Shown here piece by piece: positions 612 through 47,430 of a stretch of 64,000 nucleotides of DNA (positions within the stretch are counted from its first letter, which is position 1; each line of letters begins with the position of its first letter). A program made the translations under genes and the position numbers. Origin of the DNA: Octopus vulgaris. Lineage: Eukaryota. The notes under the pieces are model-generated. The model did not search any database, had not been told where the DNA came from, and worked only from the letters and a program-made list of their open reading frames with translations. The stretch is taken from contig OX597823.1 of the NCBI GenBank assembly GCA_951406725.2, positions 20,956,001 to 21,020,000 of the forward strand, written 5' to 3'.

Positions 612-925
612 TTTTGCGTCATCCTTTCGGGGTCGGTAAATTAATTACCAGTTGAACACTGGGGTCGATGTAACTCCTTGTATGTCCCCACTATGTTTAG
701 CCCCTTGAGGGCAATAAAGAAATAAAAAACGTTAGCACGCCGGGCGAAGTACTTAGCTGTATTTTGTCTGTCTTTTCGTTTTGAGTTCAAAGTTCAACAG
801 AGGTCGACTTTGCCTTTCATCCTTTCAGGGTCGATAAATTAAGTACCAGCTGCGTACTGGAGTCGATCTAATCGACTGGCCTCTTCCCTCAACATTTCGG
901 GCCTTATACCTAGAGTAAAAACATA
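612..925 (+). mobile_element. tRNA-derived SINE family A, dimer (partial unit with tail 1 joined to a D-loop-truncated unit with tail 2)
   Basis: Matches the other family A copies: gagttcaaa B-box-like motif, core gcctttcatcctttc.gggtcgataaattaagtaccag, junction taaagaaata|aaaaacgttagcac. Confidence 0.8.
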
Positions 926-4041: not shown

Positions 4042-4939
4042 CGTATAGGCCCTCCCATTGATATAGTTTGTTTTCTGTAGGGATAAAATCGTCTGAGAGT
4101 GAATTCCGGAGAGAGAGAGAGAGAGATGAAGATGTATGAGCAAATAGACTACAATGAGTTGTTTACCGGAGGAGTTACTTATGTGAAAGTTTGTTGAGAA
4201 GACCAAAGGAAATGTGGAGAATCACTTGATCCACAGGCTGCTGTTTTAGACACTTATGCAGTAAGTAGGAGAGAGGGGATAATTGATAAACGAAACAGAG
4301 AGAGATAGTGTGAGATGAGAGAGAATGGAAGTGCGAGGAGAGATGGAGTTGGTATGAAAAAATACATTAATGCAAAACGGAGAAGTTAATGAAAGTAAGA
4401 GAAAAAACTAGAGATGGAGAGAAAGAGAGAGAGCTGAGTAGTTTTGGAGATCATAAATTGTTGGTGAGTGAAGGCTTTAGTTTGTCAACCAATCAAATAT
4501 ATTTTCCTGGATGTCTCCTGCACTGCGCATTTTTCATAAAAATCTCCGCATCAACTGACGTGTGATTTCAAGAAAAAGCAGTGTAGGAGAAACTACATGA
4601 AGGTTCTACCTAACAGAAATAACCTGCAGTCATATGACATCCGACTGTCCTTTAGATAGAATTGTAAACTTTCGATAAGGTAGTCCTGCATACCTCTAAA
4701 ATTACGAGATGTTGAAACCTTTTATCAAAGATCTGTTCGATCCTGTTGATCTTGTGGCTTATAACAACAGCAACAATTCAATATTAGAGTTGACACATCA
4801 TACATCATCTTTGCTACTATGGTAATTTTTTCATCTTCACCTAACCATCAGCAATACCAAAACCAAAAACTGAACCAAATGAATCATGCTTTAAACTTAT
4901 TTATCTATTTATTTTCTTTTATTCTGTTATTTCTTATTT

Positions 4940-5310
4940 TATTTATTGGTCACAAGGGGCTAAATACAGAGGGGACAAACAAAGATAGAAAAAGGGATTT
5001 ATCGTCCCCGAAATGCTGAAAGGCAAAGTCGACCTCGGCGGAATTTGAGCTCAGAACGTAACCACAGACGAAATACCCATTTCTTTACTACCCAGAAGGG
5101 GCTAAACACAGAGAGGATAAACAAGGACAGACAAACGGATTAAGTCGATTATATCGACCCCAGTGCGTAACTGGTACTTATTTAATCGACTCCGAAAGGA
5201 TGAAAGGCCAAGTCGACCTCGGCGGAAGTTGAACCCAGAAGGTAAAGACAGACGAAATACCGCAAAGTATTTCGCCCGTCGTGCTAATGATTCTGCCAGC
5301 TCGCCACCTT
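4940..5310 (-). mobile_element. SINE family A dimer
   Basis: Full head unit plus a second, internally deleted unit starting at ggtatttcgtctg (junction ~5078). Confidence 0.85.
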
Positions 5311-7539: not shown

Positions 7540-7899
7540 TAGGGGATTAAGTCGATTACATCGACCCCAGTGCGTAACTGGTATTTATTTAATCGATCTC
7601 GAAAGGATAAAAGGCAATGTCGACCTCGGCGGAATTTGAAGTCGAACGTAGCGGCGGGCAAAATACCTATTTCTTTACTACCCACAAGGGGCTAAACACA
7701 GAGAGGAGAAACAAGGACAGACAAACGGATTAAGTCGATTATGTCGACCCCCAGTGCGTAACTGGTATATAATTTATCGACCCCGAAAGGATGAAAAGCA
7801 AAGTCGACCTCGGCGGAATTTGAACTCAGAACGTAGCGGCAGACGAAATACGGCTAAGCATTTCGCCTGGGATGCTAACTTTTCTGCCAGCTCGCCGCC
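7540..7899 (-). mobile_element. SINE family A dimer
   Basis: Head ggcggcgagctggcaga at 7899; junction taaagaaata|ggtattttgccc at ~7668. Confidence 0.85.
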
Positions 7900-7955
<56 letters not shown>

Positions 7956-16266: not shown

Positions 16267-16514
16267 TTTGGTTGGTGCATATTATTGCGGCTTTTTTGCC
16301 AACATTTCATTAAAAAAAACAATAACAGTATGCAACTAAAACATCTTTTAATGATTATTCCGGAGCATATTCACCGTCTACTTCAATTACTGCTTCCGAT
16401 TTGCTTGGCAGACGGTCAGCCCATCATTTAAAGATGTTTTTGTTAAATATTGTTGTAGTTTTTGTTGAATAAAATTTGTTGAAAAAAAGCCACAATAATT
16501 ATGCACCGACCCAA
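16267..16514 (-). mobile_element. Mariner-derived non-autonomous DNA transposon (~250 bp)
   Basis: TIRs tt.ggt.ggtgcata.ttattg.ggctttt, TA on both sides; internal minus-strand LPSK.EAVIEVDGEY resembles a mariner transposase C-terminus. Confidence 0.8.
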
Positions 16515-16854
16515 TAATTTCTACTGATTAACGTATTGTACACATAATGATTAATTTTCTAATACTATTTTACCTTAAACCATTGCTAACCTTTATATCA
16601 GTTATCCAATATTCCAGAATGGAATTGCTACCCTTGATAATTTTTGTATCTGATATTTTCCACATAACTATTTTCATTAACTATTATAATAAATCTTCAA
16701 ATGCAAATCAGCATAAGATATGCACTCACATCATCATAATAATATATCTTCTGCATATATTTAATCCTCCATCATATATATTTACATATATATTTTTATA
16801 TAAATATCTTCGTATATCATTTGATATGTTATTTTAATGTTCTTTCATAATCTT

Positions 16855-17467
16855 TTTTTATCTACTCTAGGCACCAGGCCTAAAATTCCTGGAAGGGGGC
16901 TAGTGGATTAGATTGACCCCAGTACGCAACTGGTACTTAATTTATCGCTCCCGAAAGCATGAAAGGGAAAGTGGACCCCGGCGGAATTTGAACTCAGAAC
17001 GCAAAGACAGACGAAATACCGCTAAGCATTTCGCCCGGTGTGCTAACGTTTCTTATTTCTTTACTACCCGCAAGGGGCTAAACAAAGAGGGGACAAACAA
17101 GTACGGACAAAGGGATTAAGCCGATAACATCGACCCCAGTTCTTAACTGGTACTTAATTTATCGACCCCAAAAGGATGAAAGGTAAAATCGACCTCGACG
17201 GAATTCGAACTCAGAACGTAAAGGCAGACGAAATACCTATTTCTTTACTACCCCCAAGGGGCTAAACACAGAGGGTAGAAACAAGGACAGACAAACGGAT
17301 TAAGTCGATTACGTCGACCGCAGTGCGTAACTGGTACTTATTTATAGACCCCAAAAGGATGAAAGGCAAAGTCGAACTCGGCGGAATTTGAAATCAGAAC
17401 GTAGCGGCAGACGAAATACCGCTAAGCATTTCGCTCGGCATGCTAACGATTCTATCAGCTCGCCGTC
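16855..17467 (-). mobile_element. SINE family A trimer containing both junction types and both tails
   Basis: Three cores; junctions at ~17238 and ~17054; imperfect TSD ttaatg.tcttt at 16834 and 17468. Confidence 0.85.
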
Positions 17468-18057
17468 TTAATGCTCTTTAATACTACTGTATTACATCAC
17501 CAGAAAAAAATACATCCAGTATATTTCTATACTAACCAAATATGATAGATAGACTACTGTGCACACCAGGTGTATATTTCTAAAATATATAAATTAATAT
17601 TAGATTAAACACTATTCCTATATATAATATATTAGACTTCACCTTATATATATATATAATGAAAGTATTCGAAAAATTATATTTTGTAACACATATGCAA
17701 ATTCCATAATTATTCAGATAGCAATATCAATTTAATTAATAATCTTATTAATAGCTAAATATTAAATTATATGGCATTTTTCATAATACTATTAAATTTA
17801 ACACAAGCGTCCATGTCAATATCAACATATGTAGTGATTTGTGTGCAACGGGACTGTATATATATGAAAATTTTTATGCGCATTACATTTTCTGTAGTCT
17901 GATACACATATATATATGTGAATGGACGCGTAATTATACCTATGAATTTTTTGATATATATGCGTATTTAGTTGAATACATAAACTTACTTATATGTAAT
18001 GAGCCGATATAAATGTATATATGTATATATAGGTATACATATGCATATGTATATTTT

Positions 18058-23703: not shown

Positions 23704-24091
23704 ATATATATATATATACATAAAGTGTGTTTGTGCGTCTGTGTATTTATGTGTATATAACCTAATATAATAAAAATCCCACGGGCTCTTAAGCTATAAA
23801 GTCCCTGGCATTTAACCTATTCTCAATAGATTTGTTCTTCAAAGGTTGATCAAACACGTCAGTCATCATTAACCGATATTCAATTATATTTGTTTTCATT
23901 ATTTACCAAGATACGTTTATGCATTAATCATAACATTTCCATGGGTTCCTCGGTGTTTAATGTGGTAAAGGGTTTAAAAATTCACGTTTAAATAGTTAAC
24001 CAATAGATCGAACTTCTGATCGAAATGCTTGCAACATATCTAGACTCTGTGAAGGACATACAAGAACTATATGCTCTGAGCCGAGACGTAT

Positions 24092-24888
24092 TCTTATCTA
24101 TTTAAAGCCCAGAAGGGCTACACACAGAGGGTACAAAGAAGGACAGAAATACGGATTAAGTCGATTATGCCGACCCCAGTACGTAACTGGTACTTATTTA
24201 ATCAACCCCGAAAGGATGAAGGGCAAAGTCGACCTCGGCGGAATTTGAACTCAGAACGTAGCGGCAGACGAAATACCTATTTCTTTACTACCTACAAGGA
24301 GCTAAATACAAAGAGGGCAAACAGGGACAGACAAACGGATTAAGTCGATAATATCGATCCCAGTGCGTAACTGGTACTTATTTAATCGACCCCGAAAGGA
24401 TGAAAGGCAAAGTCGACCTCGGCGTAATTTGAACTCAGAACGTAGCGGCAGACAAAATACCTATTTCTATTTCTTTACTCCCCACAAGGGACTACACACA
24501 GAGGGGACAAACAAGGACAGAAAAACGGATTAAGTCGATTAATTCGACCCCCGTACGTAACTGGTACTTATTTAATCGATCCCGAAATGATAAAAGGCAA
24601 AGTTGACCTCGGCGGAATTTGAACTCAGAACGTAGCTGCAGATGAAATACCTATTTCTTTATTACCCACAAGGGGCTAAACACAGAGGGGACAAACAAGG
24701 ACAGACATAGGTATTAAGTCGATTACATAGACCCCAGTGCGTAACTGGTACTTAATTTATCGACCCCGAAAGGATGAGAGGCAAAGTCGACCTCGGCGGA
24801 ATTTGAACTCACAATGTAACGCAACGCAGACGAAATACCGCTAAGCATTTCGCCCGGTGTGCTAACGTTTCTGCCAGCTCGCCGCCTT
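24092..24888 (-). mobile_element. SINE family A tetramer within one 15-bp TSD
   Basis: TSD tgagccgagacgtat at 24077-24091 and 24889-24903; one head and four ~185-bp core-tail units. Confidence 0.92.
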
Positions 24889-26815
24889 TGAGCCGAGACG
24901 TATGCTACCACGCAAAAAGAAGTACAGTCCATTCTATGAGTGAATTTTCTTGCTCAAGATGCCACACAAAGGAATTATATTTGAAAAATGTGTTAACGAA
25001 AAAAACATCGAAGTAGCATTGCATGACCTGGAAAGGAAAGAGTGAAGAACAAAAATAGTGAAACAGGAGTTGAAAAGAAAATGAATGAAGATGCAGACGT
25101 AGAAAGAAAGGAGAGTTTGTACTACTTTCGCTGGTTGTATGCAGCCTATTCCCTGAACTATGATAATGATGGACACAATCATTTACGTTAATGTTATAGG
25201 TGGGAGGTGTATATTCATTAGGAACGTTTTAAGGTTTATGATTATCTAAAAGAAAGTAGGGCGAAAAAAGCGAGGAAGACGAATAAGATAGAATTACATT
25301 TGCATAAATGTTGAAAAATAACAAAAGGAAAAAAAGAGAAAAATGTTAGTTGTATAAAGAAGAGAAAGAAAACAAGGTTTATACGGAGAAAGAAATATAA
25401 TGACAGCACCGAAAAGATGAATGATCACTATGTAAATATAATGAGAGAAGATTTATTTTATCTAGATTAAAAAATCAATAGAAAAATTCAAATTCTTTCT
25501 TCCTTTTTACAAATTATGTGAAAAGAAAAGTCAGTATATTGAATTCTCAGATTTCTGCGAAATGCTTTGGAATAAAACAAATAAAAAATTTTTGATATAA
25601 AATGTGAGTTCAAAAGCAGAACTCTAAATAATGATGGAATAGGCTGTGTATAAAACACTAAGAAGCATCTTAGTAATTTCTGAAAAATGTAATTGACATT
25701 ATTTTGTTCCTGTCGCTAGAAGGTGATACGGGTCCTCTCCCCTGCTCGCAATATATCGGATGCGCGTTGCATAATTTTCCAGCTTGAGAAAATATCCTCT
25801 TGGGGTAAAAAAATCGCAGTAGCAGCTATTCGTACGGAACAGCTATGTTGAAGTGGCAACAAGCATTACTTGCATTTGACAGTCAATATTCCAAATTGTA
25901 ATAGAGAATTATGTCCCATATATTAAACTTAGTTTAGTGAAGTCAATTCAAATCTGGTTCCTTCCTAAAATTCTGTTTGTTGAGAAAACGCGTTATTATG
26001 AAGAATGTTTCGTAGTTATACGGTAGCAAACACGTTCACTTAGGCATAGAGAGGAGAGAAACACATCCCACTTTTGCAACACACCTAGATTATAAGGGAT
26101 GAAAACATTACAAAACATAAGCTATTGTGGTCTGTGATAGAATTAACCATAAACTTTTTATGGTTCTGCTCCTCTGTTTTTGAAAATATACATTCTTTTT
26201 AATTGCCGAAATTGAAGAATGAACAAATTTCAAAATATCATCACCAAATCAAATTAAGTCGCTAAATTTTATCCGACATACTGGTTAAATAAGCTATAAT
26301 TTCTTTTAGAAGTGCCTCGTTGATATATAAATAAATAACGTTTGAATGGTTACAGTTGTATTCATAACAAGCGTTTTATGATAACGATTCTTATAGCAGC
26401 TAATTGTTGGCCAAATCTGTTTCCCAGGAGGCTGAACAGTTTTATTAAACTTGTCTTCATAAAAGGAAATAAAATTCGAATTAGATTATTGAACCTTGTA
26501 TGTATTTTCGCTTCATTCATTTACTTATAGACCAATGGACTTCACGATGCATATAGTACCAATATAAAATTATACGTATGTATGTTTGTCGTCCATATAC
26601 TATCGAAGTAATAAATATGATTAGAATCGCCTATATAAGATTGTAAATTATAAATAAAAAACCATCATTCGTATCGAAAATTAAAAGGGAATACGAAAAA
26701 CTGTAAGAAATCCCTTTTGATTACCATAGTAATTGTTTTTGCTGTTGCTGCTCTTTTTCTTCATCTTCTTCCTATTAATATTATTATTATTGTTGGTGTT
26801 GTTGTTGTTGTTGTT

Positions 26816-42236: not shown

Positions 42237-42643
42237 TTTCTTTTCTACCCAAAGCAGAAGGCCCGAAAGTTTTGGGGAGGGGGCCAGTCGATTAGATCGA
42301 TTGCAGTACGCAACTGGTACTTAATTCATCGACCTTGAAAGGATGAAAGGCAAAGTCGACCTCTGCGGAATTTGAACTCAGAACATAAAGACAGACAAAA
42401 TACCTATTTGTTTTATTACCCACAAGGGGTTAAACACAGACACAGAGGGGACAAACAAGGACAGACATACGTATTAAGTCGATAATATCGACCCCAGTGC
42501 GTAACTGGTACTTAATTAATCGACCCCGAAAGGATGAAAGGTAATGTCGACCTCGGCGGAATTTGAACTCAGAACATAAAGACAGACAAAATACCGCTAA
42601 GCATTTCGCCCGGCGTGCTAACGTTTCAGCCAGCTCACCGCCT
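42237..42643 (-). mobile_element. SINE family A dimer (tail 1 unit then tail 2 unit)
   Basis: Junction ...aata|ggtattttgtctg at ~42404; imperfect TSD agaacaaa.gtt at 42225 and 42647. Confidence 0.85.
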
Positions 42644-44004
42644 TATAGAACAAAAGTTACGCCAGCACTATGAAATAGCCAGAGATGAAATGACCAGAGA
42701 TGAAATGGCCAGAGATGATGTATACAGATTGCCCAACTCTTGCTGCCAAAAACTTCCGGATTATACACATTCGAAACGGTGTATCAGCACAAGCAAGTGA
42801 CAATGAAGTTCTCGGAAAAATGGAGAAACTCTTCCAATGAAAAACATGTGGAAATGAATCTACCCTGAATAGAAATAATCCCTATAATAATAGGTGATTC
42901 GCGAAACAGCTATCACCATCGTACTGACATACACTTAATCCAAACTGCAGAACTTACGAAGACGCGCATCACGCGGAAAGTAACACTATTTGACACTGCA
43001 CATATATCGCTTAGGATGATTTTAATACTGTAAAAATAACAAGGTCAAAACTAAACACTGTCACCACCCCAGTCACACAGAGCTGACCACGGTAATATAA
43101 GACAAGTGAATGATGGTGATGATGATGATAAGGAGGAGGAGGAGATGGAGGATGAAGAAGACGAGGAGACGGATGGCGGTGGTGGTAATGGTGATGATAG
43201 CGGTGGTGTTGGTGATGGTGGTGGTGGTGGTGGAGGTGACCAAACACAAGCGTATTGATATTTAGGGATCAATGAAAATCTATGTGGTGGTGGTAGTGGT
43301 GATGATGATGGTGATGATGGTGGTAGTGGTGGTGGTGGTGGTGGTGGTGGTGGTGGTGGTGATGGCGATAATGATGATGAGGAGTTGGAGTAGGAAGAAG
43401 TGGATGATGGTGGTAATGATGATGATGATGTTGGTGGCGGTGGTGGCGGTGGTGGTGGTGGTGGTGGTGATGGAGGCGGTGGTCGTCATTGTGATGGTGG
43501 TCATGATGATGATGATGATAATGGCCGGAAAATAAATGAATAAGTAATTTACTGAATCATTCGTAAAATATATTGATCTTTTGCAAGAGTTCATCCTGAC
43601 TAGCGACCGGATATTTTGTGTAAACAACCAATAAAGGACAACAACAACACCAAACGATTGAATCTTCTGAAGCAAAATGAAATGCATACTTTAAATTTTG
43701 TCCTAAAAATGCTTTTTTTCAAAACTCGGTGTCTCAACAGCAAAAATTTTCCTCATTGGCACGGTGGATTCTGTGCTTTAATGGCCCTGGATGAAAGTTC
43801 CAGTTAGGGCCTCCTATGTTAAACAGGTCAAAGACTAATATGGACTGCCACGTTCTGAGATTAAAAAAATGGGTTTGCGTAGGGCCAACACCCCTGCCAA
43901 GAAGAAAGCAAAGTTACAGAAACATGAATGAGAATACAAAACCGACGCGACCTGAGAGAGGATAACCTTCCGAAAGGACAAACCATTGTTGAAAACAGTG
44001 CTGA

Positions 44005-44200
44005 AAAGCCGTCGATAACCTGTGTTCTATAGGCCACTATAGCAACGTAAAATAAAGCCGTCAATAGCCTATGTTCTATAGGCCACTCTAGCAGCATGAA
44101 ATAAAGCCATCTTTATCCTATGTTCAATAGGCTACTCTAGCAAAGTGAAATAAAGCCGTTGTAGACTATGTTCTATAGGCCACTATAGCAACGTCAAATA
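44005..44200. repeat. 49-bp minisatellite x4
   Basis: gcc.t anchor at 44008, 44057, 44106, 44155; unit contains ctataggccactatag. Confidence 0.9.
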
Positions 44201-44790
44201 AGGTGTTCTGCACAATGGCAGAACACCAGAAGAATACTACTGGCCAATAGAAACAGAATAACACAAACAAAAATATGAATGAATCAGGAGATGAAACTGA
44301 TTCAAGAGGAGAAATTCCTAAAGATGGAAACAATGAATCGGATAATAATTTAAAGATAGAAATAATTAAAGAATTATAATCAATAGATCTTTATATGGAG
44401 AACGAAATTATGTCCAAGTAGAAAACGCGACAATGAAATAGTAACAATAAAAGATGTAAAATTGACCATCACAGATTTATCAAAAGTGGTTACAACTGAC
44501 AATGTTAGCAGATGAAAAGAAGTAATATATTTAGCAGTGGCAGAGTTAGTTACAAAGACAATTGGATGTCCCTCATATCTAACCATATGTGAATATCGAA
44601 AACAAAGCAAGTAATATTGTAAATATCATGCTGAAATAGAAAAATATGTTCAGAATAGAACAGAAAAAAACGTATAAGTACAAGAGAAATATAGCATAAT
44701 TCAGGGGATGGAAGAACACGTGAAGAAAGCTAAACAGTAAAGAAATCAATGACAAGAAATTTGGTGATGTTTCGAACAAACAAATCATTC

Positions 44791-45807: not shown

Positions 45808-46036
45808 TATTTCTTTACTACCCACAAGGGGCTAAACACAGAGGAGACAAACAAGGACAGACAAACGGATTAAGTCGATTACATCGACCCCAGTGCGTAA
45901 CTGGTACTTAATTTATCGACCCCGGAAGGATGAAAGGCAAAGTCGACCTGGGCGGAATTTGAACTCAGAACGTAACGACAGACGAAATACCGCTAAGCAT
46001 TTCGCCCGGCGCGCTAACGTGTCTGCCAGCTCGCCG
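45808..46036 (-). mobile_element. SINE family A monomer with 14-bp TSD
   Basis: TSD ctgttcatcatata at 45794-45807 and 46037-46050. Confidence 0.92.
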
Positions 46037-47193
46037 CTGTTCATCATATAGATTGCCTACCAGTCACGTGTTTTTGTAGAGTGCAACATATTTATATACG
46101 GGAAACGTTAATTAAAAGTAATGTAGCATCACCAATAATCAGGTACATTAAATACTTCATAAATAAATAACATGCAACACTGTAAGTACAGATAGAAAGA
46201 GGAACTATAATAATTAGCCCTAATCCTATTAGGAATATTTAATAGCCTTTTGTAAATGTTCTTCCCTTTTTACTGTATTGTATTCTGTCTAGGACATTTA
46301 TTCATAAGTATTTATAAGTTTATGTCTGCTGTAATCTGCTTCATTCTGTTTTTCTTTAAAATGATATTAATACTCTTAAGTACTTTCCTCCTTTCAATGT
46401 TGTCTCGGTACATATTTCATATTATTAACTTTAATAAATCTGTAAACTATCGGTAGTAGTCTCTTCTGTGGCTTATCTGCAAAGTACCACTTGCCGTTGC
46501 TCATATTAAAAGTTGAACAAACTTTTCCACAACAGCGTTTGTATTTGAATCTATTCTGGGTTAATTTCGCGTTTCACAGTGTTAGCGCCAGGAAGAAAGC
46601 GACTGGAAAGACAGTGTTCGCTCAGAATAAAATTTGTTTAATAGAGATCTGAGCTAATCTTTTTAGAAATCCACTTTCCTGTATCTAAGGAATAGTTGCT
46701 CTCCTCCCTTAGCTACAAAATAATGCACGCACAATCACGACAGTTACAGGGATTTCATACAATGGATATTATTGTCAGCATTTTGAAAATAGAACAGATA
46801 AATATTTGAGTGATTCACTGAAAAAACGAGTGTACACTGGGATAAGGCAATCTAAGCAGATCGGGGCAACTCTAAAAAGCTGGATATCGTTGTCAAGGAT
46901 CACGCAGATAATAAAGTATCTATCAACGAATAGGAAAAAATATTGATATAGAAGTGTCTTGAAATATAATAACTACCACAACTGGTAACAGGAACAACCC
47001 CTTTAAATAATAGTTGCATTGAGACTGAACGAAAGCATATGGAGAAATACATGTCTTAACGCCTAGTCCATACAAATATATCCAAAATAAGTCAGCGGAT
47101 TCTACACATATATTATATATGATAATTTCAATTGAACAGTAACAGCAAAACAAAGCCAATGCTCTACAGTTACTGAATGTATCATTTCAAAAA

Positions 47194-47430
47194 GGGCGGC
47201 GAGCTGGCAGAATCGTTAGCACGCCGGGCGAAATGCTTAGCGGCATTTCGTCTGCCGTTACGTTCTGAGTTCAAATTCCACCGATGTCGACTTTGCCTTT
47301 TATCCTTTCGGGGTCGATAAATTAAGTACTTGTTACGCACTGGGGTCGATGTAATCAGCTTAATGCCTTCGTCTGTCCTCGTCTGCCACCTCTGTGTTTA
47401 TCTCCGCTCCTGTGGGCAATAAAGAAATAC
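47194..47430 (+). mobile_element. SINE family A monomer
   Basis: Full head to tail 1; TSD-like tatcatt.caaaaa on both sides. Confidence 0.88.

Follow-up and report, generated by a model that had tools for sequence, protein, structure and literature searches.

How does a SINE come to stand in a chain of several units, only the first of which has a complete head, inside a single target-site duplication? This question is raised by positions 24077-24903 of a 64,000-nucleotide stretch of Octopus vulgaris DNA (hereafter the window). An initial annotation had described this locus as four SINE units within one exact 15-bp duplication, with the full head on the 5' unit only, and the coordinates confirm this description. 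The four units lie on the minus strand, and the duplication (24077-24091 and 24889-24903) extends to 18 bp if one mismatch is allowed. The parts of the tetramer, in the direction of the SINE, are as follows.

24889..24903, no strand: outer target-site duplication, head-side copy (reaches 24906 with one mismatch)
24652..24888, minus: U1, full SINE unit of about 233 nt (tRNA-like head, body, and LINE-like tail)
24866..24876, minus: A-box-like motif in the U1 head, read from the sequence against the general consensus
24827..24856, minus: head hairpin of 13 bp (head positions 33-62), whose 3' arm (positions 50-62) is the probable insertion site and the start of the later units
24799..24810, minus: B-box-like motif of U1, read in the same way
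24652..24696, minus: 3' tail also present in an L1-group LINE and in ORF1-only derivatives of it (by eye, 32 of 35 columns of the alignment are identical)
24468..24651, minus: U2, beginning at head position 50
24278..24461, minus: U3, beginning at position 50
24095..24277, minus: U4, beginning at position 50, with a worn tail like that of the older CA subfamily
24077..24091, no strand: outer target-site duplication, tail-side copy (reaches 24094)

A 6-nt extra tail repeat follows U2 at 24462-24467. From U1 to U4, the units differ from the consensus at 7/184 (positions 50-233), 18/184, 16/184, and 21/183 sites, U1 being the least diverged. As had been noted, the units of the chain also differ from each other; all six pairs show 21-27 differences in about 184 sites, and there is no close pair.

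We consider that such chains arise as young copies insert one after another, by target priming, into older copies of the same SINE, with fusion of the 5' ends, and we put the probability of this reading at about 80%. Chains would grow by single units. A partner LINE would supply the enzyme that nicks an existing genomic SINE at head position 50 (position 17 for a second subfamily), a new SINE RNA would be copied into the nick, and its cDNA would anneal to the matching head of the host. One head would remain, the body of the host would be pushed to the 3' end, and the outer duplication would be that of the founding copy. In the tetramer, U4 is likely the founding host copy.

The other SINE loci in the window are listed below; family A has the young tail, and family B has the same head and body up to about position 172 with other tails and is older.

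619..921, plus: A unit truncated at the 5' end, then a family-B unit starting near position 19 (missing from the initial annotation)
4938..5310, minus: dimer, second unit from position 50 and with an internal deletion
7543..7901, minus: dimer, second unit from position 50, 3' end cut
16858..17469, minus: trimer of a full A unit, an A unit from position 50, and an older family-B unit from position 17
42240..42644, minus: dimer of an A unit and a family-B unit from position 50
45808..46037, minus: A monomer with a duplication
47195..47429, plus: A monomer (CA subfamily) with a duplication

The claim of seven junctions at one point of the head in five loci (4940, 7540, 16855, three in 24077, and 42237) held, as all seven are at position 50 and three of them are letter-perfect; the position-50 motif occurs 17 times in the window against 1.1 expected. 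Duplications were likewise found at both reported monomers (45808 and 47194). The trimer at 16855 does have three units, but its third unit, which makes an eighth junction in the window, starts at position 17 and belongs to family B. In the dimer at 7540 the second unit begins at position 50 as described, but its 3' end is cut and no clear flanking duplication was seen. The last units at 16855 and 42237 are from a different, older family with another tail. In the 42240..42644 dimer, positions 50-72 are common to both units, including two private changes, and this shared tract is the trace expected from a fused target duplication. In contigs from four sequencing runs (DNA-type or unlabelled), no piece spanned the 16855 chain, the signal being swamped by other copies. 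Two other repeats were observed in the window, a 49-bp tandem repeat in four copies at 44005-44201 and one at 16320-16560 that is high-copy by contig depth.

The SINE is non-coding, short, dispersed, and present in high copy number, and its target-site duplications have a median length of 16 bp. In the 2.8-Gb genome, an exact 22-base junction of the tail with position 50 has 34,787 matches, the 26-base context of the intact head has 18,115, and the junction of the tail with position 17 has 3,665. We parsed a 1.73-Mb sample, partly picked for junction richness, and counted 527 units at 323 loci. The unit that follows an A tail starts at positions 49-54 in 152 of 178 cases and at 17-19 in 14. 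A blind subset of 1.06 Mb (five 200-kb stretches and the window; 237 units) gave a start at 50 in 46/61 and at 17 in 8/61, and its clean loci had 1, 2, 3, 4, and 6 units in 26, 13, 4, 3, and 1 cases, respectively. Extrapolation from 43 junctions per Mb gives roughly 10^5 junctions genome-wide, and head-to-tail chains of the SINE number in the tens of thousands. The longest chain in the sample has eight units. A route from SINE to satellite had been proposed, and it stands as far as unit number varies within one outer duplication, small arrays exist, and there is some local homogenisation; long homogeneous arrays were not found in the sample, where loci had 1-8 units and adjacent units differed by a median of 8.5%.

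The order of the units carries much of the argument. Divergence from the consensus is 4.0-4.3% in the main class of A, 5.6% in the CA class of A, and 8.4% in chain-terminal B. At mixed junctions of clean chains the younger class precedes the older one in 40/43 cases (8/8 in the blind subset), and the order is old to young in 3/43; with loci enriched for position 17 included, it is younger to older in 57/61. Because clean chains exclude internal B units by definition, units following B were tested separately. In the 1.73-Mb sample, 0 of 14 family-B tails were followed by position 50, and a genome search for this combination gave 168 matches, of which the ten that were read were all mutated A tails. 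Divergence is higher in the last B unit (8.5%) than in the unit next to it (5.2%), and this holds for 23 of 29 chains (p = 4e-4). In chains of A units only, the last unit is no more diverged than its neighbour (4.8% and 4.9%, p = 0.9); among chains with at least three units, last and middle units do not differ significantly (p = 0.14).

These data bear on the possibility that ready-made multimers are retrotransposed from read-through RNAs of chains, or that one multimeric master copy changes its unit number by recombination, as the initial annotation had suggested in part. Such multimers would fit some A-only chains, in which the units are nearly identical and the outer duplications clean, and also the unit consensus, which (by eye) lacks a long run of T that would terminate Pol III. 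A single master, however, predicts one inherited last unit, and the last B units are all different, by 17.6% on average and by 7.3% at least. The bases just past the position-17 junction vary by host type, and no strict position-specific subfamily was found. We regard this explanation as very improbable. Mismatches between the two copies of the duplication number 14/165 in B-ended chains against 14/305 in A-ended chains; the direction is that expected from self-insertion, but the difference is weak and we do not count it as support. An outer duplication was found in 11/23 B-ended and 19/25 A-ended chains.

Some neighbouring units are nevertheless close relatives. Adjacent A pairs less than 6% apart make up 31%, against 2.9% between chains, and the nearest neighbour of a unit lies in the same chain for 33/134 units where 1.5 are expected, so a second process acts. 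Local duplication or conversion later reshaped about a quarter of the units, and the majority of neighbours are independent copies. That tandem duplication or unequal crossing-over after one insertion made the chains by itself is hardly credible: the excess of close pairs and an eight-unit chain that is a mosaic of two variants agree with it, but it cannot fix a one-base junction over tens of thousands of loci or yield mixed-family chains, and for most adjacent pairs the difference is about that between two units chosen at random. The fixed junction and the mixed-family chains refute it as the main route, and it stays as a secondary process. The eight-unit chain (L157:585-2100) resembles an early satellite-like state. 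At L111:6319-6959, the last 48 nt of the SINE tail stand alone in tandem between two full units.

If a SINE inserts at position 50 of another by ordinary target priming, the expected product is the host head, the duplication, a full new copy, and then the host body. We found such unfused insertions. The motif of positions 51-62 followed by 0-10 nt and a new full head has 89 exact matches in the genome, 28 when the context of the host head is included. Seven loci were read, of which two overlap, and all six distinct loci have a host head (1-63/68), a full A copy, and then a unit from position 50. They keep a 14-19-bp duplication and a full-length insert. In two of them (L262 and L267) the hosts are old family-B copies, and in a third (L261) a private variant is present in both copies of the duplication and a 17-bp outer duplication surrounds the host. 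Unfused cases amount to about 0.3-0.4% of the junction counts, and this rarity means that one head is the usual outcome and that either fusion is very efficient or duplicated heads are lost later. The SINE head alone, 64-65 bp, also occurs in tandem arrays (G000:C10:17996024-17996501, and L263, with eight matches in a row), which probably grew from unfused self-insertion.

The single head is likely explained by annealing of the cDNA to the homologous head of the host. A comparable cDNA-target heteroduplex has been proposed for R2, where RNAs that keep upstream 28S sequence give mostly uniform 5' junctions and a minority of direct duplications (available text of PMC3774820). A head marker found only in A is present in 5/41 heads of chains ending in an older class against 22/45 monomers (p = 4e-4), and the B-like T21 is present in the heads of 12/29 B-ended chains against 8/45 monomers (p = 0.03). 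By these markers, the heads of chains ending in an older class are mosaic and lean to the host. The A-only marker is present in 4-5 of 29 B-ended chains; thus, the head does not always come from the host. A long shared private tract was seen by eye in only 2/29 B-ended chains. Shared rare alleles at positions 50-62 were found in 2/46, a number too small for judgement.

A match to the tail alone led to a candidate source of the enzyme, namely to a 1.78-kb element that has only ORF1, with a zinc knuckle, and to LINEs with ORF1 and an ORF2 for endonuclease and reverse transcriptase (RT). The SINE tail is on all four LINE 3' ends that were followed. The LINE has the domains zf-CCHC, Exo_endo_phos, and RVT_1, with PF13966 in relatives, and the best solved relative of its RT is L1 ORF2 (E = 2.5e-31, against 2e-19 for R2). 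The partner LINE belongs to the L1 group by its ORF1 and ORF2, its APE endonuclease, and an RT closest to L1. It is probably from the Tx1 clade; the 120 matches listed for its RT include no named Tx1 protein, and the Protein Atlas gave generic RT clusters only.

The LINE and its ORF1-only derivatives lie at a single fixed site within a host repeat, flanked by a duplication of about 13 bp. They form stacks of up to 22 tails in a row, in which a different family or an autonomous LINE is often last. Stacks of the 1.78-kb element, head to tail and often before an autonomous LINE, were seen at G000:C7:100087405-100126293 (L246, L247, and L260) and at L221-L256. These derivatives are very young (protein identity 98-100% among the top matches), and a second family with a 504-aa frame builds 1.9-kb arrays. 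The host repeat, seen in the flanks of L221, L223, L226, and L237, has a 5' end with a GTCT microsatellite that resembles a non-autonomous Helitron, and the downstream half of the repeat looks like a degraded remnant of LINE ORF1. The LINE arrays follow the known pattern of Tx1 and R1, whose tandem copies are ascribed to sequential insertion at a regenerated site (available text of PMC4494074 and PMC2718515).

What sets the position of the putative nick can be approached from insertions at ordinary sites. At non-SINE sites, GGT follows the terminal tail of the main subfamily in 17/56 cases (background 1.0%), and AGA follows that of the CA subfamily in 13/29. GGTA and AGAA are the starts of head positions 50 and 17, and their use is subfamily-specific at SINE and ordinary sites. 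Genome-wide, the tail GCAAT precedes 2,142 of 3,665 position-17 junctions but 520 of 34,787 position-50 junctions. Pairing of the last bases of the RNA with the nicked DNA likely helps in the choice of the site. At mismatches between product and target within the first six bases, the CA class carries the RNA-type letter seven times (in 5/7 loci) and the target letter never. In the main GGTA class the RNA letter leads by 8 to 3, or by 3 to 2 without two loci of doubtful register; these counts support RNA pairing for the AGAA class only. A-family insertions were also seen at nearly one site in the 5' part of another SINE-like repeat (L044:7015, L047:354, and L146:9072), which suggests that one siting rule acts on a second family too.

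Within the same explanation by self-insertion at the DNA level, the site could be set by the preference of the LINE endonuclease alone, with different LINE subfamilies cutting before GGTA, AGAA, or TATA. The single fixed site of the partner LINE and its derivatives fits this variant, as do the near-even count in the GGTA class and the statement, in the available text of PMC4494074, that target choice in Tx1 depends mainly on the endonuclease. Against it stand the RNA-type letters of the CA class, LINE insertion sites that, as far as seen, do not resemble GGTA or AGAA, and matches at non-SINE sites that vary from 3 to 8 nt (by eye). We consider the variant possible but rather doubtful.

A more far-reaching proposal, which we offer tentatively and at somewhat less than even odds, is that the SINE homes to itself. 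Transcription of a chain would continue beyond the tail for a few bases of the next unit, and the RNA ends would pair with head position 50 of any genomic copy and steer the LINE enzyme there. Chain RNA would in this way give rise to more chains, a change in the last bases of the RNA would have moved the target from 17 to 50, and the 3' end of the template would program the target of an L1-group enzyme.

The head itself had suggested a different origin, in which SINE RNA is cut or ligated at a hairpin loop and the RT joins the 3' halves, by template jumping or through a circle, into a chain inserted in one event. The hairpin that had been reported is real, but has 13 bp rather than 11 (positions 33-45 paired with 50-62, z = -3.4), and its 3' arm begins with the junction base, which was the last base of the 6-nt loop as first drawn. 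A cut there would be in the anticodon-arm region, at the loop's 3' edge, and single outer duplications are often intact (exact in 8/19 A-ended chains), as insertion in one event would give. A junction hairpin in RNA is not stable (z = +1.5), and Rfam gave no ribozyme match, nor was a self-cleaving motif found at the junction. The second junction, at position 17, is outside the loop. A circular intermediate predicts identical units, which the median difference between neighbours contradicts, and template jumping accounts neither for the order from young to old and the greater age and diversity of the last units, nor for the unfused insertions with their duplications and the GGTA and AGAA starts at non-SINE sites. 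Joining at the RNA level is thus very improbable, and we keep sequential self-insertion as the explanation of the chains. The head has A- and B-box-like motifs and pairing between its 5' and 3' ends; ARAGORN and Rfam gave no tRNA match for it, and its putative tRNA-like nature is read from the A- and B-box consensus. Motif searches in the searchable supplements of PMC4824008 and in those of PMC11481361 gave no match to a central domain or family (CORE or Meta superfamily, OR1/OR2).

The chains trace a path, driven by retrotransposition, from a dispersed SINE to tandem arrays, and each chain, as a dated stack, places the subfamilies in temporal order. By inserting into its own copies the element may be following a safe-haven strategy. 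In repeat libraries, such chimeras will end up divided into false families. If the end of the RNA sets the site, the system would offer a natural example, open to testing, of an APE-type LINE enzyme whose target is chosen by RNA.

Octopus tRNA-derived SINEs named OK, OR1, and OR2 were reportedly described by Ohshima and Okada in 1994. They are probably from the same host group and possibly of the same family as the SINE studied here. A literature search, which most subscription papers and Repbase fell outside, found no description of the chain structure or of a SINE targeting its own head, and the available main text of a 2026 octopus repeat annotation (PMC13282606) mentions no nested or tandem SINEs.

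Nested self-insertion is already known, and a SINE that targets its own head with a fused 5' end would be a variant of it. Zepp and ZeppL, L1-group LINEs of green algae, likewise form tandem arrays by nested insertion into their own copies (available text of bioRxiv 10.1101/2020.06.13.149070), but Zepp is autonomous, varies in its 5' truncation, and has one cluster per chromosome, whereas the octopus element is a 233-nt SINE whose junction is fixed to one base and whose short chains are dispersed. In crocodilians SINEU-3 with Tx1-Mar, and in Drosophila tandem R1, also combine site-specific machinery with sequential insertion (available text of PMC4494074 and PMC2718515); there, full copies sandwich a duplicated foreign target, whereas here the target is the head of the SINE itself and the 5' end is usually fused. 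The uniform 5' junctions and the minority of direct duplications are shared with R2 elements that keep upstream 28S sequence (available text of PMC3774820), but the homology of R2 is co-transcribed rRNA, and here it is the element's own head, with an APE-type endonuclease. SINE-derived satellites of squamates (PMC10702118) and tandem SINEs of bivalves (PMC11481361) likewise have units shorter than the SINE and distinct leading and trailing monomers. In the available parts of these papers the arrays are ascribed to unequal recombination or to insertion at the same locus, and that of the squamate paper contains no TSD analysis; in the octopus, self-insertion can be traced, and the arrays are short and dispersed.
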